A stretch of 43,016 nt of DNA from positions 1 through 43,016 of the forward strand of contig JACUTR010000002.1 of NCBI GenBank assembly GCA_014859735.1, given 5' to 3'. This document shows, piece after piece, positions 1,805 to 14,250 of this stretch (position 1 is the stretch's first letter; every line of letters starts with the position of its first letter). A program made the position numbers and the translations under genes. The notes beneath the pieces were generated by a model. The model did not search any database. It had not been told where the DNA came from and saw only the letters and a program-made list of their open reading frames with translations. Origin of the DNA: Candidatus Methanophagales archaeon. Its GTDB lineage: Archaea > Halobacteriota > Syntropharchaeia > Alkanophagales > Methanospirareceae.

Positions 1805-2046
1805 TTTAAGAGCCATCATAAAATTTTTTTGACCTCTATTCTATCATATCCAGATCGTCATACTCTTTACTTCATTAGCATCACGGAATAAATCTTTTCT
1901 GCCGTCCCATCTATATTGCATGCATAGATAGTATAGTACTCACCTCTTAAATTCTCAGAATAAAAAGATAAATGAAGAGGAGGAATGGCCTCAACGAAAA
2001 AGAGGCACGTGAGGGGGAAAAAGTATTTGAATCGATTGGAAGGAAA

Positions 2047-3471
2047 ATGAACATCCCCAGAGTAATAATTGCGGGAGACAGAAGCTCTGCAGGTAAGACG
2101 ACCATATGTATTGGACTGTTGAGCGCTTTGCGAACATGTGGCTTCGAGGTTCAAGGATTCAAGGCCGGACTTGACTATATAGATCCTGGCTTTCATACCT
2201 TAGTCTCTGGAAGAGCATCAAGAAATCTGGACGGTTTCTTGATGCCACCTGCTACATTGAGGGAGATATTTATAAGAAACTGTATGGGTGCGGATATCGC
2301 GGTAATAGAAGGGGTAAGGGGACTCTACGAAGGGTTGAATTATTCCGATGATGTAGGAAGCACCGCTCAGTTAGCAAAGATTTTAGAGTGCCCCGTTATA
2401 CTCGTGATTGATGCGAGTAGTATCACAAGGAGTGTTGCCGCGGTGGTTAACGGTTATAAAAACTTTGACCCTGAAGTGCAGCTAGCAGGAATTATTTTGA
2501 ACAATATTGGAAGCGAACGACACGGTGAGAAGGCGCAGAAGGCCGTAGAGAAGTACTGTGCTATAAAAGTTATTGGTAAGATTCCTCGTAAGAACGAGCT
2601 GAAAATCGCAATGCGGCATCTTGGTTTGGTTACCGCTACGGAATGTAAAACCAGATGGAATGATTTTAACCGCGTTTTGGACAGGATAAAAACAGCGGTA
2701 GAGGAGAATGTAGATATAAAAGTGCTTTTTGATATCGCCAAATCAGCACCTGCTCTAACAGTGCCGGAGTCAAGGATCTTTCGTTCTCGTTCGAGTAGAA
2801 GAGGAGAGGCAAAAGTACGGATTGCAGTGGCTTTTGACGAGGCGTTCAATTTTTACTATCAGGACACGCTGGATCTACTCGCGCTGGAAGGTGCGGAACT
2901 CGTATATTTCAGCCCGATAGGGGATAAAAAGCTTCCTGAAGGAGTGGATGCGGTTTATCTCGGGGGCGGCTTCCCCGAGCTGTATGCAGCGGAGCTCGCC
3001 GCGAATACGCAGATGATCAAAGCCATAAAGGACTTTTACGATGGCTATGGGGTTATCTATGCGGAGTGCGGAGGTTTGATGTATCTGATGGAGCGACTCA
3101 TCTACAAAGACACCAGCTTTGCGTTCTGTGGTGTGCTAAAAGGATCAGTGAGATTTGGAGAACGGAGAATCATAAACTATGTAGAGGGGGAATTTCGGAA
3201 GGATTGTATCTTAGGGAAGAAAGGCAGCAGATTTAAGGGGCATGAATTCCATCATTCTACCATAATGCTTGAAGGAAACAGTGATTTTGCTTTTAAACTA
3301 CTCAGAGGTGAGGGTGTCGGGGATGGTATGGATGGTATTATAACAAAGAACTGCCTCGCTTCTTTTGCTCATCTTCATGCAGCTTCTTACACCGGGTTTG
3401 CTAAAAATTTTGTCAACAGTGCAAGAGAACAAAGGTCGCGCACGCTCCCTCAGACCGGGTCTCTCAGCTAA
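2047..3471 (+). CDS. cfbB: Cobyrinate / Ni-sirohydrochlorin a,c-diamide synthase (CbiA/CfbB family, glutamine amidotransferase)
   Basis: N-terminal 'IAGDRSSAGKTT' is a MinD/CobQ-type ATP loop. C-terminal 'YAECGGLMYL' is the GATase nucleophile Cys motif. The ATG at 2047 is preceded by GGAAGGA. CfbB cannot be separated from CbiA by eye. Confidence 0.8.
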   Translation: MNIPRVIIAGDRSSAGKTTICIGLLSALRTCGFEVQGFKAGLDYIDPGFHTLVSGRASRNLDGFLMPPATLREIFIRNCMGADIAVIEGVRGLYEGLNYSDDVGSTAQLAKILECPVILVIDASSITRSVAAVVNGYKNFDPEVQLAGIILNNIGSERHGEKAQKAVEKYCAIKVIGKIPRKNELKIAMRHLGLVTATECKTRWNDFNRVLDRIKTAVEENVDIKVLFDIAKSAPALTVPESRIFRSRSSRRGEAKVRIAVAFDEAFNFYYQDTLDLLALEGAELVYFSPIGDKKLPEGVDAVYLGGGFPELYAAELAANTQMIKAIKDFYDGYGVIYAECGGLMYLMERLIYKDTSFAFCGVLKGSVRFGERRIINYVEGEFRKDCILGKKGSRFKGHEFHHSTIMLEGNSDFAFKLLRGEGVGDGMDGIITKNCLASFAHLHAASYTGFAKNFVNSAREQRSRTLPQTGSLS

Positions 3472-3581
3472 GGACGCCATAAACATAGATTTGCACCCTG
3501 AATCAAGTACAGAGCGGATGAAGTAAGAGGTACACAAAAGGAAAAAATTTAAAAAGAAGATTGACAAATTATGAGAACATC

Positions 3582-4238
3582 ATGCTTCCCCTCTACATCG
3601 ATCTTTCGGATAAAAGAATACTCGTATTTGGCGGTGGTAGTGTTGCCGAGAGGAAAATATGTCAGATTTTGGAGACGGGTGAAGATGTAAAGGAGGGGAA
3701 GGTGAAGGTGGAAGTTTACAGTCTCGATTTTACTTCGCGCGTAGAAGAGCTGTGCGAAAAGAGAACCATTCAATGTTTTAGAGGTAATTTGTGGGATCAG
3801 AACGTGGAAGAGCTTCTAAAAGGAGCTTTTTTGATCCTCATTTGCACCAATGACGAGGCTCTAAATGATTACATTTTTAACGAGGCGGCAAAATTTGAGG
3901 TGCTCATCAATTACCGCGATAAGGGAAATGCATTTATGTCTTCAGTACTAAACAAAGGCGGATTTCTTATTTCTATCTCTACAGGTGGTAAGGGACCCGC
4001 ACTGGCACGATACCTGAAGGAAAAGATTGCGTCACTTATAGGAGATAAAGAGGAGAAGATGCTGTATATCCAGAAACAGCTGAGAGAATATTTAAAAGAG
4101 AGGATTAACGATGAGCGGAGAAGGAAAGAGATTTTAACCTGTGTTTTGAGCGATTATGACTGCTGGGACGTTCTTGATGATCCCCTTGAGGTTGCTAAAG
4201 AACGCATTTTTCGAATTGTAGAGGATAAATATGTATAA
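3582..4238 (+). CDS. sirC: Precorrin-2 dehydrogenase / sirohydrochlorin ferrochelatase (SirC / CysG N-terminal-like)
   Basis: Rossmann motif 'ILVFGGGSVAERK' sits near the N-terminus. Size is about 218 aa. The 3' end overlaps the hemA start by 8 nt. Confidence 0.7.
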   Translation: MLPLYIDLSDKRILVFGGGSVAERKICQILETGEDVKEGKVKVEVYSLDFTSRVEELCEKRTIQCFRGNLWDQNVEELLKGAFLILICTNDEALNDYIFNEAAKFEVLINYRDKGNAFMSSVLNKGGFLISISTGGKGPALARYLKEKIASLIGDKEEKMLYIQKQLREYLKERINDERRRKEILTCVLSDYDCWDVLDDPLEVAKERIFRIVEDKYV

Positions 4239-5496
4239 AATTGGCTCTCTATGGCTTTCGCATAAAATGTGTAATGTCCTGGAACTTGAAGAGGTAGCTA
4301 CTCGATTGACTCCAGCGATATTCGCAGAAGACCAGCGCGTGGATGGGTATGTAGTTTTAAACACGTGTAATCGCGTGGAGGCGTATATCACCGCGGAGAA
4401 TCCAAGAGAGGTCTTAAATGATTTGGTCACTAGACTAAAATTGGAACAAAGCGTGATCTCCGTTGGCAGAGCTGCGGTAGAGCATCTTATGCGAGTCGCT
4501 TGTGGGCTTGAAGCGATGATAATAGGAGAAGACCAGATTCTGGGGCAGATAAGGAAGTGTCATCTGGATAGCAAGAGAGAAGGGACGATTAACGGTCTTC
4601 TGGACATGGCGTTCGAACGAGCGATAAAAGTAGCGAAGAAGGCGAGAAGTGAAACAAGAATAAACGAAGGGTCGGTTTCTATCGGGTCTGCGGCAGTTGA
4701 ACTTGCAGAGGAGATAACTGGAGGATTAGAAGGTAAAAACATTCTTGTAATTGGTGCAGGAGAAATGGGAACGCTCGTAGCACGAGCTATTGCAGAAAAA
4801 GCCTTGAAAGCCATGTTCATTGCCAATCGGACATACGAAAAAGCGAAGAGACTTGCCGAAGAGGTAGGCGGTAAGGCGGCTAGACTGGATGAGAAGGAGA
4901 AATGGCTTACGGTTTGTGATATCGCGATAAGCACTACCTCCGCGCCTCATTATATCCTGGATTACGAGTTGATGCTGAGGGTAATGGATCATCGCGGGAG
5001 TGATAACCGCCTTCTCATTATAGACATAGCGAATCCGAAGGATGTTGAGGAGCGGGTTGGCGAGATAGAAGGGGTCGAACTATATGACCTGGACAGTTTA
5101 TGCGAAATAAGTGAGAATAACCTAAAAAAGAGGCTTTCTGAGGTAAGTAAAGTTGAAAAGATGATCGAGAGAGAGATTGAACTCTTTAAAAAGATTTTGA
5201 ATCAGCAGAGGGTCGAAAGGCTTGTCGGAATGTTTTATCAACACGGCTCCCGAATAAGGGAGGAGGAGATAAAGAGAGCACTCCGCCATATAGAAAAAGG
5301 GAGAGCCCCCGAAGAGGTATTGGATGATTTTTCGCGTGCGGTTTTAGCTAAAACCTATCATCAACTAACAAAAATACTCAGGAATACCGATGTTCATCTT
5401 TTAGATTCGCTTCTATTGCAACTTGAGAAAGAGTTTGATGGTCATAATTCGTCTGATGCAGTGAAAACCAAGGGTTCACAAAGAGAGGAAAGATAA
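4231..5496 (+). CDS. hemA: Glutamyl-tRNA reductase
   Basis: 'LNTCNRVE' carries the catalytic Cys. 'GLEAMIIGEDQILGQI' and the NADPH loop 'VIGAGEMG' are also present. Confidence 0.85.
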   Translation: MYKIGSLWLSHKMCNVLELEEVATRLTPAIFAEDQRVDGYVVLNTCNRVEAYITAENPREVLNDLVTRLKLEQSVISVGRAAVEHLMRVACGLEAMIIGEDQILGQIRKCHLDSKREGTINGLLDMAFERAIKVAKKARSETRINEGSVSIGSAAVELAEEITGGLEGKNILVIGAGEMGTLVARAIAEKALKAMFIANRTYEKAKRLAEEVGGKAARLDEKEKWLTVCDIAISTTSAPHYILDYELMLRVMDHRGSDNRLLIIDIANPKDVEERVGEIEGVELYDLDSLCEISENNLKKRLSEVSKVEKMIEREIELFKKILNQQRVERLVGMFYQHGSRIREEEIKRALRHIEKGRAPEEVLDDFSRAVLAKTYHQLTKILRNTDVHLLDSLLLQLEKEFDGHNSSDAVKTKGSQREER

Positions 5497-5553
5497 CTTG
5501 ATTAAGTTCATAGATTACGGTATTGGTATTCGCATTAGAGTGTGGACGTGATA

Positions 5554-6528
5554 ATGATGAATGAGATGTTTCCAAATGTGAGAATGAGACGGTTAAGAGG
5601 CCTGAAACTGATAAAAGAAACCCGAATTTCTGTAGATGACCTAATCCTCCCGTTGTTCATTGACGAGAATATAGAAGGAAAAACTAAAAACCCGATTGAT
5701 TCCATGCCGGGACAGTATAGATTCTCGATAGAAGGAGTGGTAAAAGAGGTTTTAGAGGCTCGCTCGATGGGTATAAAATCAGTGCTTTTGTTCGGGATTC
5801 CAGCGAGGAAAGATTTGATAGGAAGTGAAGCCTTCAACAACCAGGGGGTAATACAACGAGCGGTTAGAAGGATAAAAGAGGAGGTGGATGATATCATTGT
5901 CATTACCGATCTGTGTCTTTGCGAGTATACAAGTCACGGGCATTGCGGACTTGTAGAGAATGATAAAGTGGTCAATGACCCCACACTGGATATTTTAGGA
6001 AAGATAGCAGTGAGTCAAGCGGAAGCCGGGGCGGACATGGTTGCACCGTCGGGGATGATGGATGGGATGGTAAAAGTGATAAGGGATAAACTCGACACTC
6101 AAGGCTTCGTGGATACCGCTATCATGTCTTATGCGGCAAAATACAATTCCGCGTTATATGGCCCTTTTAGAGAGGCTGCGGATTCTGGCTTCAAATTCGG
6201 TGACCGAAGTGGCTATCAGATGAACGTTTCTAATGCGCGGGAAGCTCTGAGGGAAATAGAACTTGACGTACGAGAAGGTGCGGACATCGTGATGGTGAAA
6301 CCCGCCATCTTTTATCTCGACATCATTTCCAGGGTGCGTGCGAGATTTGATATTCCACTCGCCGCTTATAACGTCAGTGGGGAGTATTCAATGATAACTG
6401 CGGCTTCTGAGAAGGGATACTTGAATCGAGAAGAAGTGATTATGGAAGGATTAACCGCGATAAAAAGAGCGGGTGCGGATTTGATTATTACCTATTTTGC
6501 GAAAGATATTGCACCGTTTTTGAAGTAG
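5554..6528 (+). CDS. hemB: Porphobilinogen synthase (delta-aminolevulinate dehydratase)
   Basis: The Zn Cys cluster 'DLCLCEYTSHGHCG' and Schiff-base Lys segment 'VMVKPA' are present. The ORF opens at GTG 5542; the first ATG is at 5554. Confidence 0.9.
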   Translation: MMNEMFPNVRMRRLRGLKLIKETRISVDDLILPLFIDENIEGKTKNPIDSMPGQYRFSIEGVVKEVLEARSMGIKSVLLFGIPARKDLIGSEAFNNQGVIQRAVRRIKEEVDDIIVITDLCLCEYTSHGHCGLVENDKVVNDPTLDILGKIAVSQAEAGADMVAPSGMMDGMVKVIRDKLDTQGFVDTAIMSYAAKYNSALYGPFREAADSGFKFGDRSGYQMNVSNAREALREIELDVREGADIVMVKPAIFYLDIISRVRARFDIPLAAYNVSGEYSMITAASEKGYLNREEVIMEGLTAIKRAGADLIITYFAKDIAPFLK

Positions 6529-6549
6529 CTACTAAACTCTAAACCCGAA

Positions 6550-7344
6550 TTAGGATTTACGATCTTCCCGTTCTTGTTGAGCATGTTTCTTTATCTCATT
6601 CAAAATATCCTCAAAAGTGCTCTTCTCAGCAACCAAATCTACTCTCATTCCTTTCCCGGTTATCGTTTCGGCGGTTAAATCCCCAATAGCCGCAATTTTT
6701 GTGGCTCTAAAGATTTCCTTCTCTCTCTTTAACTCTTTGGAAAGTTCAAAAAAGATTTCAAACGTCAAAGAACTCGTGAATATAATATAATCGGGCTTAA
6801 ACTTTACTAAATCCTCAAACAGTTTCTTAAATTCAGTCAAATCCTTCTTCTTCATTTCATATACCGTTATATCCGTAACAACAGCTCTTTTCCGCTCTAA
6901 AAAGCTTATAATCTCCTTATTCCCCTCTGAACTCCGAAGAAATACAATCCTCCTATCTTTTACCCTGATTGCGTTAAATAGCTCTTCGAGACCTTTGGTG
7001 CTAAACGCGGAAGGCATTAAATTCACCCGTAACCCCCTTTTCTCGAGCTCTTCTCGCGTCACCGGACCGATGGCACAGAGTTCCACATTGGCTTCCAACA
7101 AGCTCTTTTTCAAATCAATTTTACCTTCGCATAACTCAAACGATTTTTTAATACCATTTACACTGGTGAAAACGAGTATGTCAACGCCTTCGTTAAAAGC
7201 GGCCTCTATCTCGCTTAAGGCCTCATTTCTCGCCACAAGGTCAAAAACAGGAAAGCCGAAGAAATCAAATCCATGCTGCTCCGCGAGTTCTCTCGCATGG
7301 GAGAGTAAATTTTCAGGTCGGAAAGCTGCTATCCTCGGTTTCAC
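6550..7344 (-). CDS. hemD: Uroporphyrinogen-III synthase
   Basis: The 264-aa ORF has a two-lobed HemD-like pattern ('ILVFTSVNG', 'IIFTSS') and sits in a hem context. Confidence 0.7.
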   Translation of the reverse strand: MKPRIAAFRPENLLSHARELAEQHGFDFFGFPVFDLVARNEALSEIEAAFNEGVDILVFTSVNGIKKSFELCEGKIDLKKSLLEANVELCAIGPVTREELEKRGLRVNLMPSAFSTKGLEELFNAIRVKDRRIVFLRSSEGNKEIISFLERKRAVVTDITVYEMKKKDLTEFKKLFEDLVKFKPDYIIFTSSLTFEIFFELSKELKREKEIFRATKIAAIGDLTAETITGKGMRVDLVAEKSTFEDILNEIKKHAQQEREDRKS

Positions 7345-7446
7345 TTTTGATACCTCTTTTAAAAATTATAGTATGTTATATGTTAAAATCTTGTTCGCTC
7401 TTTGGCATTACTTATGAAGCCGAGTTTAGGTTTGGGCGGAGACGTC

Positions 7447-7476
7447 AGCCAGATACGCTCTGTTATCGGAAGTGCG
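7447..7476. repeat. Repeat arm A (AGCCAGATACGCTCTGTTATCGGAAGTGCG), inverted partner of 8095-8126
   Basis: The reverse complement of 8095-8126 aligns as CAGATACGCTC(+3 nt)GTTATCGGAA. A direct partial copy lies at 8171-8190. Confidence 0.8.
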
Positions 7477-7487
7477 TTCTACCATTT

Positions 7488-7625
7488 TTATCCCTCTATG
7501 CCATATTTTTTCCTTATATTCTGCAAATCTCTTTTCTCAGCCTCCGGGTCTTCGTTATATCTTTTACTCAACTTATCCCGAATCTCTCTCATCATCTTTA
7601 CTGCATCAAATTTTTTATCTTTCAT
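7488..7625 (-). CDS. 45-aa ORF overlapping the 3' end of the PIN gene (MKDKKFDAVKMMREIRDKLSKRYNEDPEAEKRDLQNIRKKYGIEG), candidate cognate partner/antitoxin
   Basis: Found by hand translation, since it is below the ORF-track cutoff. The ATG at 7625 is preceded by GGGAGGTG and overlaps the PIN ORF by 11 nt. The stop TAA is at 7488-7490. Confidence 0.45.
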   Translation of the reverse strand: MKDKKFDAVKMMREIRDKLSKRYNEDPEAEKRDLQNIRKKYGIEG

Positions 7626-8070
7626 GAAGCACCTCCCTTGGACTCCTTATTTCTAATAATGGATACCCATATTTAAGGTTTACAGAATTATAAAGTCTGA
7701 TCTTGGTCAGATTCACTATATGTCTGAAGTTCCAACTCACTAAAACATCAACCCTGTTGACTGTGGCTATAGCTATGTGCTGTGCATCTACCAAATATCC
7801 CTCGCTTACGACACCTTCCTCAATATAACGGTGTGCTAACTCCCTTGCCTCGTCATTCAAAATGACATATTCTTTGCCTTCTTCTGGTATTTCCTCAACC
7901 AAGTTCCTGACATTCGCTGGTGCCTCCTCCAGTTCCCTCAATGTCAAATCTGAGATTACAAGGACTTTTAAACCTAATTTGAACTCTTCTATTAGTTTGT
8001 TAGACCATTCCTCGAACTCAGCATCAAAATATCCTCCAAATAGCGAAGTATCCACATATACTTTTATCAT
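7615..8070 (-). CDS. PIN-domain ribonuclease (VapC-like toxin)
   Basis: The 151-aa ORF has acidic PIN positions 'VYVDTS', 'LRELEE' and 'VDAQHIAIA'. AGGTGA lies 8 nt upstream of the ATG. Confidence 0.75.
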   Translation of the reverse strand: MIKVYVDTSLFGGYFDAEFEEWSNKLIEEFKLGLKVLVISDLTLRELEEAPANVRNLVEEIPEEGKEYVILNDEARELAHRYIEEGVVSEGYLVDAQHIAIATVNRVDVLVSWNFRHIVNLTKIRLYNSVNLKYGYPLLEIRSPREVLHER

Positions 8071-8094
8071 TATGCTGTCACCTCTTCCTTAGAC

Positions 8095-8190
8095 GCATTT
8101 CCGATAACGGCTGAGCGTATCTGAAGTTCCGAGCGAAGCGAGGAATTTAGGCAAAGTGCCGAAGGCACGAAGCCAGATACACTCTGATGG
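8095..8190. repeat. Roughly 95-nt palindromic element (arm B CCGATAACGGCTGAGCGTATCTG ... arm C CAGATACACTCTGATGG) with internal small hairpins
   Basis: Arms B and C are inverted copies of the same motif found at 7447-7476. The loop contains GTGCC-GAA-GGCAC and TTCC..GGAA hairpins. Confidence 0.7.
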
Positions 8191-8222
8191 TAGTAGAACT
8201 CTTTTACCGGAATAAATAAATG

Positions 8223-8250
8223 AGTGCTTATTACCCTATAAATAAGCACT
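8223..8250. other. Perfect 10-bp stem hairpin (AGTGCTTATT-N8-AATAAGCACT)
   Basis: Read directly from the sequence. It lies in the spacer between the EVE-like nuclease gene and the PIN module. Confidence 0.6.
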
Positions 8251-8392
8251 TTTGAGGGGATTAAAATGGCGATGCTACGTGAAGGTGTGAAATATGGAAA
8301 GATTTATGGATTAAGCCCTTGCTGAAAGAGATATAAATAGGGAGGTACATAAAAAGATAGTGAAAGGTAAAGGAAAAAGAGTGCTAAGGAAT

Positions 8393-8402
8393 GTTAGGCG
8401 AC
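8393..8402. repeat. GTTAGGCGAC, inverted partner of 9328-9337 (GTCGCCTAAC)
   Basis: A 10-bp perfect inverted repeat brackets the 294-aa ORF, 13 nt beyond its stop codon and 29 nt before its start. Confidence 0.7.
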
Positions 8403-8414
8403 GTTGTTATTCCT

Positions 8415-9299
8415 TTACACCATGATACTGTGTTCATGAGTGTTACTCCTGACCAAAAGGGAATTCTTTGCTCGGTCAATAGCGTAAGCAAATTGCATTA
8501 TTTCATCATCTACAAAACTAATTTCTGCTCCAATTGCCACTAATCTAACCTCCGCCCGAGCGAGCTTCCAATACTTGCCATAGTTCTTTACTTGAGATAT
8601 GGTGCCGCCATCGACAACATCTTTTTTCAACTCAATAATAATAACGTGCTTACTGTCAAACATGGCGATGTCGACATTATAATTGGTTCCTGGAAGGGTT
8701 ACCTGATTTATTATAAATGGAGTGTGGTTATTATTTAGAACGCCTTCAGTTGATAGGATCTCTATTAATGCACGCTTATTACGTAATAGAGCAGTTTCTA
8801 ACCTAGCTTCTGATGAAAATCTTCTAGTATCTTTTCTTATTAGGTCCACTTTCCCAATATCAATATTCGATTTTAGTCTAGGGCGTATATTATTTCCATG
8901 GTTCTTAAGGTATGAGATCAATTTTTCTCCTTCTCCAGGCAACAATGTGTTATTAGACCTTTGAAATGTAGTAAAGGTGTAGAATTCATGCGTTTTTCTC
9001 TGTAAGAGTACAGACCAAAGAGAACTTACATCTGACTCCCATACTCCTTCTGACATAAATTTCACTCGATAGACAAAAGGATCATCTATCTCTTCCCATA
9101 TTGGAGAATTATTATAGAATAAAGGTTCAACTATGCTAAATGGCCCAACTAACCTTCCGCTCTGGGTCTCTAAAATAAAAACGATATCTTTCGGGTCAAT
9201 ATTGGCTAGATGATTAATCTGGTTATTTGTAACCCCAAATAATCCTGTTTCTAGACATCTATCAAGATATTTCGTGGTTATGAATATGTGTGATTTCAT
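8415..9299 (-). CDS. Fusion protein: N-terminal PUA/EVE-like domain plus C-terminal NucS/DUF91-like PD-(D/E)XK nuclease (candidate modification-dependent endonuclease)
   Basis: The C-terminal 'VDIAMFDSKHVIIIELKKD...ISQVKNYGKYW' fits the D..ExK nuclease core followed by the 'Q(l/v)..Y' helix of NucS-type domains. The N-terminal 'GLFGV...IDPKDIVFILETQSGRLVGPFSIVEP...YRVKF' fits an EVE/PUA-like beta barrel. The gene is visibly more AT-rich than its neighbours. Confidence 0.55.
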   Translation of the reverse strand: MKSHIFITTKYLDRCLETGLFGVTNNQINHLANIDPKDIVFILETQSGRLVGPFSIVEPLFYNNSPIWEEIDDPFVYRVKFMSEGVWESDVSSLWSVLLQRKTHEFYTFTTFQRSNNTLLPGEGEKLISYLKNHGNNIRPRLKSNIDIGKVDLIRKDTRRFSSEARLETALLRNKRALIEILSTEGVLNNNHTPFIINQVTLPGTNYNVDIAMFDSKHVIIIELKKDVVDGGTISQVKNYGKYWKLARAEVRLVAIGAEISFVDDEIMQFAYAIDRAKNSLLVRSNTHEHSIMV

Positions 9300-9327
9300 A
9301 TTTTTAACTCCGTTCCTTAAATGCCAT

Positions 9328-9379
9328 GTCGCCTAACGGTGAATAAACGAACTCGAATTCGTTTATCGCTCCGATACGG
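9328..9379. repeat. GTCGCCTAAC followed by an imperfect hairpin (ATAAACGAA-N-TTCGTTTAT)
   Basis: Read directly. On the gene (minus) strand it reads CCGTATCGGAGCGATAAACGAA-TTCGAG-TTCGTTTATTCACC-GTTAGGC, an imperfect hairpin of about 49 nt ending in GTTAGGC just upstream of the 294-aa ORF. Confidence 0.6.
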
Positions 9380-9434
9380 GAATTAATCCGAAGTATTTCG
9401 TTTATCCACGACTCTTGACGAACCAAACCTTTGA

Positions 9435-10190
9435 TCATTTTTCACCTCCTTTTCTAGTAGAGTGTAGAATCAATTTCTCTCTTATACGAACCACATCGCC
9501 AATCACAATTACTGCAGGTGGCTTCACTTCCTCTTTCTCAACCACTTCCACGATGTTCCCAAGCGTTCCACATACAATCCTCGCATCTTCGGTGAATCCC
9601 TTCTCAATAATAGCTACTGGTGTATCTGCAGGCATCCCGTTCTTCAAAAGTTTCTCAACATTCTTGCCAAGCGTGCCCACGCCCATTAATATAACAAGAG
9701 TGCCCTTTAAATGCGCTAAAGCACTCCAATCAAGCTCTTCTTCCTTCTCTTCCATCTCATGCCCCGTGATTATGGTAACAGAAGAAGAAACACCGCGGTA
9801 GGTAAGCGGAATGGAAAATAATGCAGGAACTGCGCTTGCGGACGTTATTCCTGGCACCACTTCAAACTCAACACCTTTTTCCCTGAGAAATGTAGCTTCT
9901 TCTCCCCCTCTACCGAAGATATACGGGTCCCCGCCCTTCAATCGCACCACCTTCTCGTACTTCTCCGACAGCTCCACCAGGAGAGCATTTATTGCATCCT
10001 GCGAAAATTTGTGCTCACTTGATGTTTTACCAATATCAATAACTTGTTTGCCCTTGGATATCAGATCCTTCACGCCTAACACGAGACGATCGACCAGGAT
10101 TACATCAGCTTCGTTTATGAGTCTGTAAGCCTTCAAACTTACCAGTTCGGGATCTCCGGGCCCAGAACCAACAAGATATACTTTTCCCAT
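9435..10190 (-). CDS. cobA: Uroporphyrinogen-III C-methyltransferase (SUMT)
   Basis: 'VYLVGSGPGDPELVSLKA', 'VVRLKGGDPYIFGRGGEE' and 'VPGITSA' are tetrapyrrole methylase motifs. Confidence 0.9.
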   Translation of the reverse strand: MGKVYLVGSGPGDPELVSLKAYRLINEADVILVDRLVLGVKDLISKGKQVIDIGKTSSEHKFSQDAINALLVELSEKYEKVVRLKGGDPYIFGRGGEEATFLREKGVEFEVVPGITSASAVPALFSIPLTYRGVSSSVTIITGHEMEEKEEELDWSALAHLKGTLVILMGVGTLGKNVEKLLKNGMPADTPVAIIEKGFTEDARIVCGTLGNIVEVVEKEEVKPPAVIVIGDVVRIREKLILHSTRKGGEK

Positions 10191-10280
10191 CTGTTGTACT
10201 ATATCCTTCGCTATTATAAAACCAAAGGCATTTTGTTTATTTTATAAGACTGAGAGGGAAATAAAAGGTACAGTAGAAAA

Positions 10281-11567
10281 ATGAAATCGGAGAAGCTTTT
10301 TGAACTTGCTTCAAGATATATGCCGGGTGGTGTCAGCAGCCCGGTGCGTGCATATACGCCGTATCCGTTTTTTACAATGCGTGCAAACGGCTCACGAATA
10401 TATGATGTAGATGGTAGAGAATATATTGACTACTGTTTAGCATATGGACCACTCGTTTTGGGACATGGTAACGAAGAAGTGAAGAATGCAGTGAGTGAAC
10501 AGCTTGAAAACGGATGGCTTTATGGCACGCCACACGAGAGGGAGATAGAGCTTGCGAAAAAGATAATAACCCATTATCCCTCGATTGAGATGGTCAGGTT
10601 TGTTAATACGGGAAGTGAAGCGACAATGGCAGGTATAAGACTTGCACGAGGGTTTAAGGAACGTGACAAAATCGTCAAGATCGAGGGAGGTTTTCATGGC
10701 GCACATGATGCCGTCCTCGTCAAAGCCGGCTCAGGGGCTACCACCTTTGGCATTCCGGACTCGAAGGGAGTCCCAAAGGATTTCGTGCGCAACACGCTTC
10801 AAGTTCCCTTTAATGATGCCGCGGCACTGAGCGCACTGCTGGAGAGGAATTCCGGTGAGGTTGCCGCGGTTATAGTAGAGCCGGTGATGGGGAATGTGGG
10901 GCCTATACCGCCGGAGGAAGGTTATTTGAGTGATATAAGAAAGATAACGAGGGAGAACGATGTGTTACTCATCCTTGATGAGGTAATTACCGGGTTCAGA
11001 CTCGCTTTGGGCGGTGCACAGGAATTTTATGGAGCAGATGCGGATTTAACGATTTTAGGCAAAATTGTAGGTGGGGGTTTTCCTATTGGTGTGCTTGGAG
11101 GTAAGAGAGAGATTATGGAGCTTGTAGCTCCCTCGGGAGCGGTATATCAGGCTGGAACTTTTAGCGGCAATCCAATTTCTATTACGGCTGGATTGAAGAC
11201 GGTAGAAATAATGGAGAGGAAACGGGTGCCACAACGGATAAACAACCTTGGCGAAAGAATGAGATCCGCTTTACGTGAAATCGTGCGCGATTCTGGCGTT
11301 GAAGCTTCTGTTTCCGGTGTAGGCTCGATGTTCCAGGTTTTTTTCAGTGCAGGAGGGATTACAGTAAGGAATTATGCTGACGCTTTAGGATGTGATAAAA
11401 ACAGATATATGAACTTATTTCATGCCATGCTCGCTTCTGGTATATTTTTACCGCCCTCGCAGTTCGAAACGAATTTCATCAGTTTCGCGCATACCGAAGA
11501 GGATGTAGAAAAAACAATAGAGGCGTATAAGGAGAATATTGACGATTCACACGGATTCCGAGTTTAG
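10281..11567 (+). CDS. hemL: Glutamate-1-semialdehyde 2,1-aminomutase
   Basis: '[11 protein letters not shown]', 'VNTGSEA' and the PLP-Lys segment '[12 protein letters not shown]' are present. Confidence 0.95.
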
Positions 11568-11584
11568 TGACGGAGTAACTACAA

Positions 11585-12484
11585 ATGATTATCGGTACGA
11601 GAGGTAGTAAACTAGCGATTTTGCAGACTGAGAAGGTATGTGAGAGGTTGAAAGAGCTTGAATTGGGATACGAGTGTACGATAAAGACGGTGAGTAGCTT
11701 AGGAGATGTTATTACGAACAGAGCATTATATGACATGCCATCGGAGGGTGTTTTTGTGAAAAGACTTGATATGCTGCTTTTGGCTGGTAAAATAGACATC
11801 GCGGTGCATAGCATGAAGGATATACCTTTGGAAAGAGATGAAAAGTTAGAGACGTCGGCGGTTTTACCTCGTGATTCTCCTTTTGATGTCCTCGTCTCAC
11901 GGTACAGATTGGATGATATGCCGGACGGTGCAGTGATAGGGACTTCAAGTGTGAGAAGGAGATTTCAATTTTTGAATTACGCTCGGGAGAAGGGTGTAAA
12001 AGTAGCGATAAAGGATATCAGAGGTAACGTTGACACGAGGATCAAGAAGTTCCGGAGAGGCGAATATGATGGTGTGATTCTTGCTGAAGCAGGGCTTGCG
12101 AGGTTGGCTATGGGCATAGAATATGAACGGCTTGATCGCAACCCTTTTGTGCCTTCGCCAGGACAGGGGATAATTGCAGTCGTTGCGAGAAAAGGGTCGG
12201 AGGAGAGCGATATTTTAAAGGAGATGGACGATGCGGAGACGAGGGTGGAGGCTGAAGTGGAGCGGGAAGTATTAAAAGTAATTGGTGGGGGGTGTTCGCT
12301 TCCGGTAGGAGTGCATGCTTGTTGTAAAGGAGAAGAGGTGGAATTGGCGGTCTATATCGGGCCTTCTTTTGAAAGATACATTTTAGAAAAAGTTGTTCTT
12401 TCCAGAGATTACTATTTGGAGGAGGCACGAGATTTTATCTCACGAGTACTGGTAGATCTAGATCATTGGTCCCGCCATTACTAA
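11585..12484 (+). CDS. hemC: Hydroxymethylbilane synthase (porphobilinogen deaminase)
   Basis: 'IIGTRGSKLAILQTE', 'HSMKDIP', 'GTSSVRR' and 'IRGNVDTR' are present. Confidence 0.9.
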   Translation: MIIGTRGSKLAILQTEKVCERLKELELGYECTIKTVSSLGDVITNRALYDMPSEGVFVKRLDMLLLAGKIDIAVHSMKDIPLERDEKLETSAVLPRDSPFDVLVSRYRLDDMPDGAVIGTSSVRRRFQFLNYAREKGVKVAIKDIRGNVDTRIKKFRRGEYDGVILAEAGLARLAMGIEYERLDRNPFVPSPGQGIIAVVARKGSEESDILKEMDDAETRVEAEVEREVLKVIGGGCSLPVGVHACCKGEEVELAVYIGPSFERYILEKVVLSRDYYLEEARDFISRVLVDLDHWSRHY

Positions 12485-12540
12485 AAAAAGTTTTTTTCTT
12501 AGCACACCCCAGTTTTAACATGAAGAATCAGTGAGGAACA

Positions 12541-14250
12541 ATGGAAGAGATAAGGGCAAAGATACGGAAATACGCGTTGCAGAATGCAGTGAGGTATGAG
12601 AAACCACCTAAAGCAGATGCCGTGCTGAAGAAGATGCTGGCAGAAGATCCCGAGTTGAGGAAGGATGCGAAACGCCTCTCAACATTAATAGAAGAGGAGA
12701 TCAAGAGTATAGAGTCACTGAGTAAGGAAGAACGTGTCGAAGAATTGGCTACAATCGCCCCGGAATTAATAGAAGAGTTAACAGCAAAGGAGAAAGAACC
12801 GAAGCGTGTTGAAATCGGATTGCCCGAATTGCCGCATGCAAGGGGCGAAAAAGTGGTGATGCGATTCGCGCCCAATCCGAATGGGCCTGCAACACTGGGC
12901 AGTGCTCGGGGCATCATTCTCAACTCGGAATATGCTCGGATGTATGAGGGGGAATTCATTCTGAGGTTTGATGACACCGATCCGTTATTGAAGAGGCCAT
13001 TATTAGAAGCGTATGACTGGTATCTTGAGGATTGCGTATGGCTGGATGCCGAGCCGGATGAGGTCATTGTGGCATCGGAACGTATAGCGCTGTATTATCC
13101 GTTTGCGGAGGAGCTGATTAAAAGAGGAGCTGCTTATGTCTGTTTTTGTCCTGCAGAGACGTTTAAAACGTATAAAGAGCAGAAACTGCCCTGCCCTCAC
13201 AGGAGTGTTGGCGTTGCAGAGAATATGGACTGGTGGGAAAAGATGTTGAGCGGTGTTTACGAAGAAAAAGAAGCAGTGCTGAGGATAAAAACGGATATGG
13301 CAAGTGCAGACCCAGCTCTACGAGATTGGGTCGCATTCCGAATTTTAAAGAGGGAGCATCCGCTGGTTGGAGATCGATATCTGCTCTGGCCAACGCTCGA
13401 TTTTGAATCCGCGGTAGAGGACCACTTGCTTGGCATAACGCACATCTTAAGGGGGAAGGACCTCATGAAATCGGAACTGAAGCAGCGGTTTTTATACAAC
13501 CATCTTGGCTGGAAGTATCCGATAACCATGCTCTGGGGTAAAATAAAAGTGCAGGAGTTCGGTAAATTCAGCACTTCGGAGCTCCGAAGAAGGATAGAAG
13601 GTGGTGAATACGAAGGATGGGATGACCCTCGCCTCCCAACGGTACGGGCACTTCGCAGACGGGGGTTCCAGCCAGAAGCGATTCGTAAGTTTTTTGTCTC
13701 TGCCAGCATCACGCAGACTGACATCGCGGTGAGCATGAAGAATCTGTATGCGGAGAATCGAAAGATGGTGGATGCCACGGCACTGAGATACTTTTTCGTG
13801 CGTAATCCCGCAAAGATGAGAGTGGAGGATGGGCAATCGTTTGTGGCTCAGGCATTGAAGCATCCCTCCCGCGAGGAGTACCGGGAGATAAAAACGGGCA
13901 ATATTATTTACCTCAGTAGTGATGATGCCGCTAAACTCAACGTGGGGCAACAATTAAGACTGAAATATCTCTGTACGGTCGAAATGGTGAGCACTGAGCC
14001 ATTAGTAGCAAAGGTTATAGAGAGAGAAACACACCAACTAGCCGAGATGCCGGTTATCCAGTGGGCTCCTACAGACGGGATAAAAGTCCGAGTAAAGAGA
14101 CCTGAGGGACTAGATGAAGGTCTGGGCGAGCCCTCGATTGCTACCGAGTTATGGAATGTGGTTCAGTTCGAACGGTACGGGTTCGTCAGGATTGATTCGG
14201 TTGTGGAAAAAGAGACGGGAACGGAGGTCGTGGCATATTTCACGCACTGA
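12541..14250 (+). CDS. gltX: Archaeal-type glutamyl-tRNA synthetase homologue with a degenerate HIGH motif
   Basis: 'RFAPNPNGP', 'LRFDDTDP', 'GITHILRGKDL', 'FSTSE' and 'GWDDPRLPT' are present. The HIGH position reads TLGS (12892-12903). Confidence 0.8.
   Translation: MEEIRAKIRKYALQNAVRYEKPPKADAVLKKMLAEDPELRKDAKRLSTLIEEEIKSIESLSKEERVEELATIAPELIEELTAKEKEPKRVEIGLPELPHARGEKVVMRFAPNPNGPATLGSARGIILNSEYARMYEGEFILRFDDTDPLLKRPLLEAYDWYLEDCVWLDAEPDEVIVASERIALYYPFAEELIKRGAAYVCFCPAETFKTYKEQKLPCPHRSVGVAENMDWWEKMLSGVYEEKEAVLRIKTDMASADPALRDWVAFRILKREHPLVGDRYLLWPTLDFESAVEDHLLGITHILRGKDLMKSELKQRFLYNHLGWKYPITMLWGKIKVQEFGKFSTSELRRRIEGGEYEGWDDPRLPTVRALRRRGFQPEAIRKFFVSASITQTDIAVSMKNLYAENRKMVDATALRYFFVRNPAKMRVEDGQSFVAQALKHPSREEYREIKTGNIIYLSSDDAAKLNVGQQLRLKYLCTVEMVSTEPLVAKVIERETHQLAEMPVIQWAPTDGIKVRVKRPEGLDEGLGEPSIATELWNVVQFERYGFVRIDSVVEKETGTEVVAYFTH

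Follow-up and report, generated by a model that had tools for sequence, protein, structure and literature searches.

The gltX gene of a methane-oxidizing Candidatus Methanophagales archaeon very probably encodes a single, fully functional archaeal non-discriminating glutamyl-tRNA synthetase (GluRS) whose TLGS tetrapeptide, standing where class I enzymes have HIGH, is ancestral to a large clade and not a lesion. The gene lies at positions 12541–14250 on the plus strand of the window, the whole 43,016-nucleotide stretch of DNA that was analyzed, and its 569 codons run without interruption. NCBIfam and Pfam models, a match to the structure 3AII, and an AF2 model identify the 569-residue product as the sole archaeal-type, presumably non-discriminating GluRS of this organism. 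As judged from sequence comparison, a large archaeal clade, cultured Methanosarcina among its members, shares the absence of the HIGH histidines as a conserved trait. Because the gene is the sole copy and the trait is conserved across the clade, gltX is best regarded as encoding an ordinary working enzyme that is neither broken nor dedicated to heme synthesis.

Residues at the HIGH Position

The codons ACA CTG GGC AGT at 12892–12903 (plus strand) encode T118-L119-G120-S121 within the segment MRFAPNPNGPATLGSARG. In a phmmer search against all PDB chains, gltX APNPNGPATLGSARG pairs with 3AII APNPSGPLHIGHARA without gaps around the site. Because TLGS thereby aligns with the H-I-G-H of 3AII, it marks the HIGH position and no HIGH stands elsewhere; a displaced HIGH motif was sought in the gltX protein by this alignment and none was found. 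The 3AII alignment and the structural model place the four residues where the first helix of the Rossmann fold begins. An initial annotation had reported that both histidines are replaced by TLGS, each through at least two nucleotide changes, and both statements are borne out by direct reading: the Thr codon ACA differs from His CAY at three bases, and the Ser codon AGT differs from CAT at two. The other motifs that it had described as intact (LRFDDTDP, GITHILRGKDL, FSTSE, and GWDDPRLPT) are all present in the protein.

Family Membership and Fold

Two NCBIfam equivalog models for archaeal glutamate--tRNA ligase each match the full length of the protein (residues 2–569): PRK04156 scores 716.6 bits (cut-off 516), and TIGR00463 scores 579.7 bits (cut-off 401.75). 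The model of the bacterial GluRS type, TIGR00464, reaches only 113.8 bits against a cut-off of 289.95, the GluQRS models give 44–80 bits against cut-offs of 250–453, and the GlnRS models in NCBIfam also remain under their cut-offs. The Pfam domains tRNA-synt_1c, tRNA-synt_1c_C, and tRNA-synt_1c_C2 (PF00749, PF03950, and PF20974) all score above their cut-offs, giving an architecture of a catalytic Rossmann domain and two beta-barrel anticodon-binding domains. Full length, the presence of both C-terminal domains, and the sub-cut-off scores rule out identity as a GluQRS or a truncated GluRS.

The best sequence match in the PDB is 3AII, the non-discriminating GluRS of M. thermautotrophicus (phmmer, E 9e-117). 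The AF2 model, built from a 54-sequence alignment, has a mean pLDDT of 93.2 and shows a strand at 106–109 followed by a helix at 119–134, with TLGS at the helix start, the canonical location of HIGH. Foldseek also ranks 3AII first, with a target-normalized TM-score of 0.93, an rmsd of 2.1 Å, and 39% identity over the structural alignment, followed by eukaryotic GluRS and GlnRS. The two proteins belong to the same family and share an N-terminal helical domain, the Rossmann core, a zinc-knuckle insertion, the two beta-barrel anticodon-binding domains, a KMSKS equivalent lacking the lysine (LSTS in 3AII), and partnership with GatDE (PMC2978374, PMC2943598). They differ in that 3AII has HIGH, RGKDH, and RIEDTD, whereas the gltX protein reads TLGS, RGKDL, and RFDDTD and is one residue longer (EFG) just ahead of its KMSKS-equivalent loop.

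Two features used to recognize the family read differently here, namely TLGS in place of a HIGH signature with His at positions 1 and 4, and KFSTS in place of a KMSKS-type loop with its catalytic lysine. Among the sequences compared, the HIGH histidines are not defining in practice for archaeal/eukaryote-type GluRS, because both are present in only 65 of 127 aligned sequences (120 diverse full-length representatives of 50% identity clusters, the query, and six close homologues) and because E. coli GluRS reads HVGG. The E. coli enzyme illustrates that GluRS need not carry His at the fourth position of HIGH, but it retains the first histidine and belongs to the bacterial type, whose anticodon-binding domain is alpha-helical. 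The gene is a member of a known, annotated orthologous group.

Distribution of the Motif

The close homologues of the gltX protein carry source names that assign its lineage to Methanophagales/"Ca. Methanospirareceae" (ANME-1) in Syntropharchaeia, Halobacteriota. TLGS is read in 116 of 121 tabulated proteins (the query and its 120 closest database homologues), and the other five read TLGN, TIGS, or TVGS. Relatives at the levels of genus, family, order, and class all have T-L-G-S/N wherever the motif region is readable, so the conservation in related lineages that the initial annotation asked about is found throughout. Every GluRS read from ANME-1, other Syntropharchaeia, Methanosarcina, Methanolobus, Methanococcoides, Methanothrix, Methanoperedens, and an Archaeoglobales MAG has T[LIV]GS, while Methanocella has SLGN or TLGN and Ca. 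Methanoliparum has TIGH. On these alignments the clade spans ANME-1/Syntropharchaeia, Methanosarcinales, Methanocellales, Archaeoglobales, and Methanoliparia.

Orthologues from Methanosarcina, Methanolobus, Methanococcoides, Methanothrix, Ca. Methanoperedens, ANME-1, and the Archaeoglobales MAG are annotated as "glutamate--tRNA ligase" and are 47–77% identical to the gltX protein (70–77% for ANME-1 and 47–56% for the others named). They share T[LIV]GS, RFDDTD, RGKDL, EFG-x-[FL]STS, the tree clade, and sole-copy status; they differ by lineage-level divergence only and have no hem genes beside their gltX.

Three sequence types occur in the phylum. The first, NPNGPxT[LIV]G[SNHT]...RFDDTD, is found in many families. 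A scan of named genome records places it in the complete genomes of Methanosarcina sp. T3 and Mfa9 and in Methanosarcina spelaei, Methanohalophilus profundi, Methanococcoides, Methanolobus, Methanolapillus, Methanothrix, Ca. Methanoperedens nitroreducens, Ca. Argoarchaeum, ANME-1 MAGs, and an Archaeoglobales MAG. The second, NPNGPWH[ILVM]GH...RFDDTD, is haloarchaeal-looking and occurs in large genomes, and the third, NPSGPLH[IL]GHAR...RIEDTD, is that of Methanoregula/Methanomicrobiales. The haloarchaeal-type and Methanoregula-type enzymes thus keep the histidines. In the 127-sequence alignment, HIGN, HLGN, HLGS, HLGG, and HIGQ are common, and 24 sequences lack the first histidine (T[LIV]G[SHN], SLG[HR], QLGN, or SLPQ). 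The initial annotation's suggestion of a special role does not survive this comparison, since TLGS-type variants are common in bona fide sole-copy archaeal GluRS.

Gene Trees and Sequence Constraint

Two single-gene trees group the histidine-free enzymes. FastTree, applied to 153 rows with the motif columns kept in, gives a 33-row clade (SH-like support 95) in which 32 of the 33 rows lack the first histidine and the gltX protein falls with ANME-1 (100); at least nine changes in the status of this histidine are required across the tree. IQ-TREE, applied to 73 rows under LG+G4 in a short quick search that left out the four motif columns, finds the matching 30-row clade again (SH-aLRT 93.6), 29 of whose rows are without the first histidine. 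Its sister in the IQ-TREE analysis (99) is the haloarchaeal-type HxGH group. Because TLGH, TIGH, and SLGH forms lie toward the clade base and T[LIV]GS in the crown, the tree, which has no established root, suggests that the first histidine was lost before the fourth.

The protein is, by codon comparison, under purifying selection, with dN/dS values of 0.09–0.18 between gltX and eight relatives. It retains 69 of 75 family-conserved columns, defined as those at least 85% conserved among 30 His-bearing homologues, and within the catalytic domain (residues 104–409) only H118T and G389S differ at such columns. Among the readings offered in the initial annotation, the sole copy, purifying selection, and clade-wide conservation favor that of a working GluRS whose ATP site is unusual. 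We infer activity because the gene appears to be both essential and conserved.

The hem Cluster Context

As the initial annotation stated, gltX follows hemL (10281–11567, plus strand; Pfam Aminotran_3) and hemC (11585–12484, plus strand; Pfam Porphobil_deam) and is near hemA. The hemA (4231–5496) and hemB (5542–6528) genes lie ∼7 kb away, and the large tetrapyrrole/cobamide cluster also contains a TP_methylase methyltransferase, a sirohaem-synthase-like gene, and a CbiA-like amidase. A 56-nt spacer separates hemC from gltX; together with the last two bases of the hemC stop codon it forms a 58-base segment (12483–12540, plus strand). Direct reading of this segment shows A7-G-T7 at 12483–12497, partly within the hemC stop codon, and, 6 nt ahead of the gltX ATG, GAGG. 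The T7 run after hemC could be an archaeal terminator.

A tblastn search with HemL and HemC across all fetched loci finds hemC adjoining gltX in one same-genus genome only. Hem genes are absent beside gltX in a second congener and at all other loci searched by the same method; the neighbors there are unrelated to hem genes, being DUF3344/CARDB and Mtd genes in the second congener (locus L013) and radical SAM, DHQS-II, and aldolase genes at locus L087. The hem adjacency is, on this sampling of loci, a recent, genus-level arrangement. Because only one congener shares it, the context gives no support for a dedicated role. At most, the position after hemL-hemC would couple gltX expression to tetrapyrrole demand.

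A Proposed Remodeling of the ATP Site

Several other active-site features accompany TLGS. The RGKDL segment (R304–L308; 13450–13464, plus strand) was delimited by clade column analysis, residue counts, and the 3AII alignment, and its L308 stands at the site occupied by His (RGKDH) in 51% of His-bearing homologues, 3AII among them. We take L308 to lie in the ATP/ribose pocket, as in the GlnRS and T. thermophilus GluRS structures. An alignment of representatives places an F340-G341 insertion directly before KFSTS (residues 342–346), the KMSKS-equivalent loop (13558–13578, plus strand); F340 corresponds to a gap in 81% of His-bearing homologues, and Thr345 occupies the position of the catalytic second lysine. 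Thr is present at this lysine position in 34 of 40 rows without the first histidine and in 29 of 113 rows with it. The loop was searched for a compensating lysine and none was found, as K342 is not conserved (Ser in Methanothrix, Arg or Gly in others). Further clade-specific residues are G124 (ARG versus ARA), W160, L286, and S311.

The catalytic-domain insertion carries an intact putative zinc knuckle, C201-x-C203...C218-P-H220 (13141–13200, plus strand; from sequence and alignment), whose three cysteines are each at least 90% conserved. Zinc is presumably bound by C201, C203, C218, and H220, as in bacterial and archaeal GluRS.

TLGS, RGKDL, the EFG insertion, and Thr345 together appear to constitute a remodeled ATP site shared by the clade, which is mildly interesting and apparently undescribed. 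A literature search found no paper on the histidine-free motif of this T-type clade, the reviews searched are silent on the subject, and neither HIGH nor KMSKS is discussed in the paper on the 3AII structure. The motif is already visible in public genomes of cultured species. We know of no assay of any T[LIV]GS-type enzyme; several archaeal GluRS, possibly including that of A. fulgidus or M. mazei, were reportedly tested by Santoro et al. in 2003.

The gltX enzyme would charge both tRNA-Glu and tRNA-Gln with glutamate in the usual class I two-step, tRNA-dependent reaction; GatDE would then take up Glu-tRNA(Gln) for amidation, and the ribosome and HemA would use Glu-tRNA(Glu). By analogy with the TIGN motif of bacterial TrpRS, the Thr118 and Ser121 hydroxyls, the backbone amide of the invariant Gly120, and the N-terminus and dipole of the helix may bind the ATP phosphates in place of imidazoles, and the rest of the ATP site (RGKDL, the EFG insertion, and KFSTS) may have been remodeled alongside. 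TIGN is itself described as an unusual variant of the HIGH signature, in a fully active class I enzyme with Thr at the first histidine position and a small polar residue at the fourth (PMC3684856). The comparison is one of analogy only and the variants are not homologous, as TrpRS belongs to subclass Ic, is dimeric, and has a canonical KMSKS.

In T-type enzymes neither HIGH histidine survives, the RGKDH histidine and the KMSKS lysine are likewise gone, and the EFG insertion has been acquired. That they form a mechanistically distinct subfamily, activating glutamate without the textbook class I transition-state ligands, seems rather unlikely from the sequences compared. Of the alternatives to an ordinary enzyme, the one that fares best keeps gltX as a functional GluRS but proposes that its His-free, lysine-poor ATP site confers materially different catalysis or regulation across the clade (for example in ATP affinity, metal or pH dependence, or feedback by tetrapyrroles) and that the hem placement reflects real coupling to HemA. 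This proposal draws support from coordinated changes that the clade conserves at three elements of the active site (T118, L308, and the EFG insertion with Thr345), and from the location of gltX 56 nt after hemC within a large tetrapyrrole/cobamide cluster. However, 3AII, which is active and has HIGH, also has LSTS, and hem adjacency is missing in all but one relative. Tests on independent pairs for coupling of first-histidine loss to L308, to the fourth histidine, and to the KMSKS lysine are underpowered (7 pairs on the tree) and give p values of at least 0.125. We consider this alternative quite unlikely.

Copy Number and Dependence on gltX

The source genome (1.68 Mb in 150 contigs, 93.8% complete) contains exactly one PF00749 locus in a whole-genome profile search, and that locus is gltX. 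The second, canonical gltX that the initial annotation proposed to look for was not found, either by this search or by a GluRS protein search of 41 genomes comprising the source and its relatives. In the latter, 38 of the 41 have a match, with one GluRS locus each; additional table rows are pieces of the same gene. Among genomes of the phylum that are at least 90% complete, 200 of 201 have a match and nearly all of these are single, and across ∼240 related genomes in all, nearly all have a single copy. Four closed, single-contig genomes of one family each have one match, which reads T[LI]GS. From the source genome alone, a second gltX could lie in the part missing from the assembly, but the closed relatives argue against this.

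The genome also encodes GatE (827.9 bits) and GatD (591.5 bits), together with tRNA-Glu(CUC), tRNA-Glu(UUC), and tRNA-Gln(CUG). With these present and a single GluRS, the enzyme must therefore make both Glu-tRNA(Glu) and, for amidation, Glu-tRNA(Gln), and supply translation and HemA alike. This leaves little room for the initial annotation's proposal of a pseudo-synthetase that passes tRNA to HemA. On that reading the protein would be a tRNA chaperone that binds tRNA-Glu but is unable to activate glutamate, and the real GluRS would be encoded in the unassembled 6% of the genome. The absence of both the HIGH histidines and the KMSKS second lysine, in a gene near hem genes, is what such a protein might display, but it would leave these organisms without any GluRS despite their GatD/GatE, tRNA-Glu, and tRNA-Gln. 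HemA needs charged Glu-tRNA, so some enzyme must make it; no other type occurs in closed genomes of the clade; purifying selection extends over the whole catalytic domain; and the glutamate-site and Rossmann-fold residues are kept. A pseudo-synthetase is therefore highly improbable.

GluRS homologues with a specialized job are known, namely GluRS1/GluRS2 pairs and GluQRS (YadB). The catalytic domain is common to all of them and to gltX, but the source genome lacks the second copy of a GluRS1/GluRS2 pair, and GluQRS is an enzyme of ∼300 residues without an anticodon-binding domain, whereas the gltX protein has 569 residues and both C-terminal domains. The gene order hemL-hemC-gltX had raised the prospect of a second, tetrapyrrole-dedicated paralogue like the GluRS1/GluRS2 of some bacteria. 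This is very hard to reconcile with the single PF00749 locus of the source genome, of nearly all ∼240 relatives, and of closed genomes with the same motif, or with both trees, which make gltX orthologous to the sole GluRS found in Methanosarcinales and other lineages. An error of sequencing or assembly at the motif can be dismissed, since hundreds of independent assemblies carry these residues and five nucleotide differences separate the codons from those for His.

Implications

For genome annotation, a GluRS without HIGH histidines in Halobacteriota should not be labeled a pseudogene, paralogue, or pseudo-enzyme. In Methanosarcina, all Glu and Gln decoding and tetrapyrrole synthesis would pass through a class I synthetase that lacks the signature histidines and the KMSKS lysine, which raises the enzymological question of how dispensable the class I signature chemistry is. 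If the T-type mechanism were distinct, different kinetics or regulation would be possible, and these may be relevant to the very high F430/corrinoid demand of methane-metabolizing archaea.

Genomic context of gltX

The sole archaeal-type GluRS gene of the source genome (gltX, 12541-14250) borders a densely packed tetrapyrrole gene cluster (1972-11567), which encodes a CbiA/CobB-like a,c-diamide synthase, a sirohaem-synthase-like dehydrogenase, hemA, hemB, a tetrapyrrole methyltransferase (TP_methylase), hemL, and hemC. The cluster is broken up by a 294-aa open reading frame (8415-9299) that has no match in a Pfam search. Between hemC and gltX, an A7-G-T7 palindromic run (12483-12497) overlaps the hemC stop codon and is possibly an archaeal oligo-T terminator.

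A whole-genome aragorn scan detected 39 tRNAs. Several isoacceptors are missing from this set, as expected of an incomplete MAG or of archaeal tRNAs with introns. There are five genes for tRNA-Cys(GCA), and nearly all other tRNAs are single-copy.

GluRS variation among relatives

The gltX open frame spans 571 aa (protein, 569 aa), compared with 598 aa in the same-genus orthologue L003 (genome G002, contig C46, 7759-9546) and 614 aa in L013 (G001, C121, 4560-6350). In both orthologues, the C-terminal barrel is extended in frame by about 24-27 residues inserted close to residue 522. In the same-family genome G011, GluRS (L031; C1, 194098-195848) matches as three adjacent pieces covering residues 3-84, 86-168, and 171-569; this MAG is 79% complete with 6% contamination, and the split match suggests frameshifts or assembly errors.

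Some homologues in the representative library are unusually long, and in these a GluRS module is fused to other sequence: P0180 (1555 aa), P0198 (793 aa), and P0201, P0203, and P0227 (766-855 aa). The HIGH site of P0227 reads TIGH.

Distribution of GluRS types

Methanomicrobiales, including Methanoregula, have a canonical HIGH/RIEDTD GluRS (loci L036, L033, L045, L055, L037, and L173-L252). On the tree, these enzymes are placed with Methanobacteriales-like sequences, apart from the T-type GluRS (typically T[LIV]GS at the HIGH position) of other Halobacteriota. This grouping implies that GluRS types within the phylum underwent either ancient replacement or differential loss.
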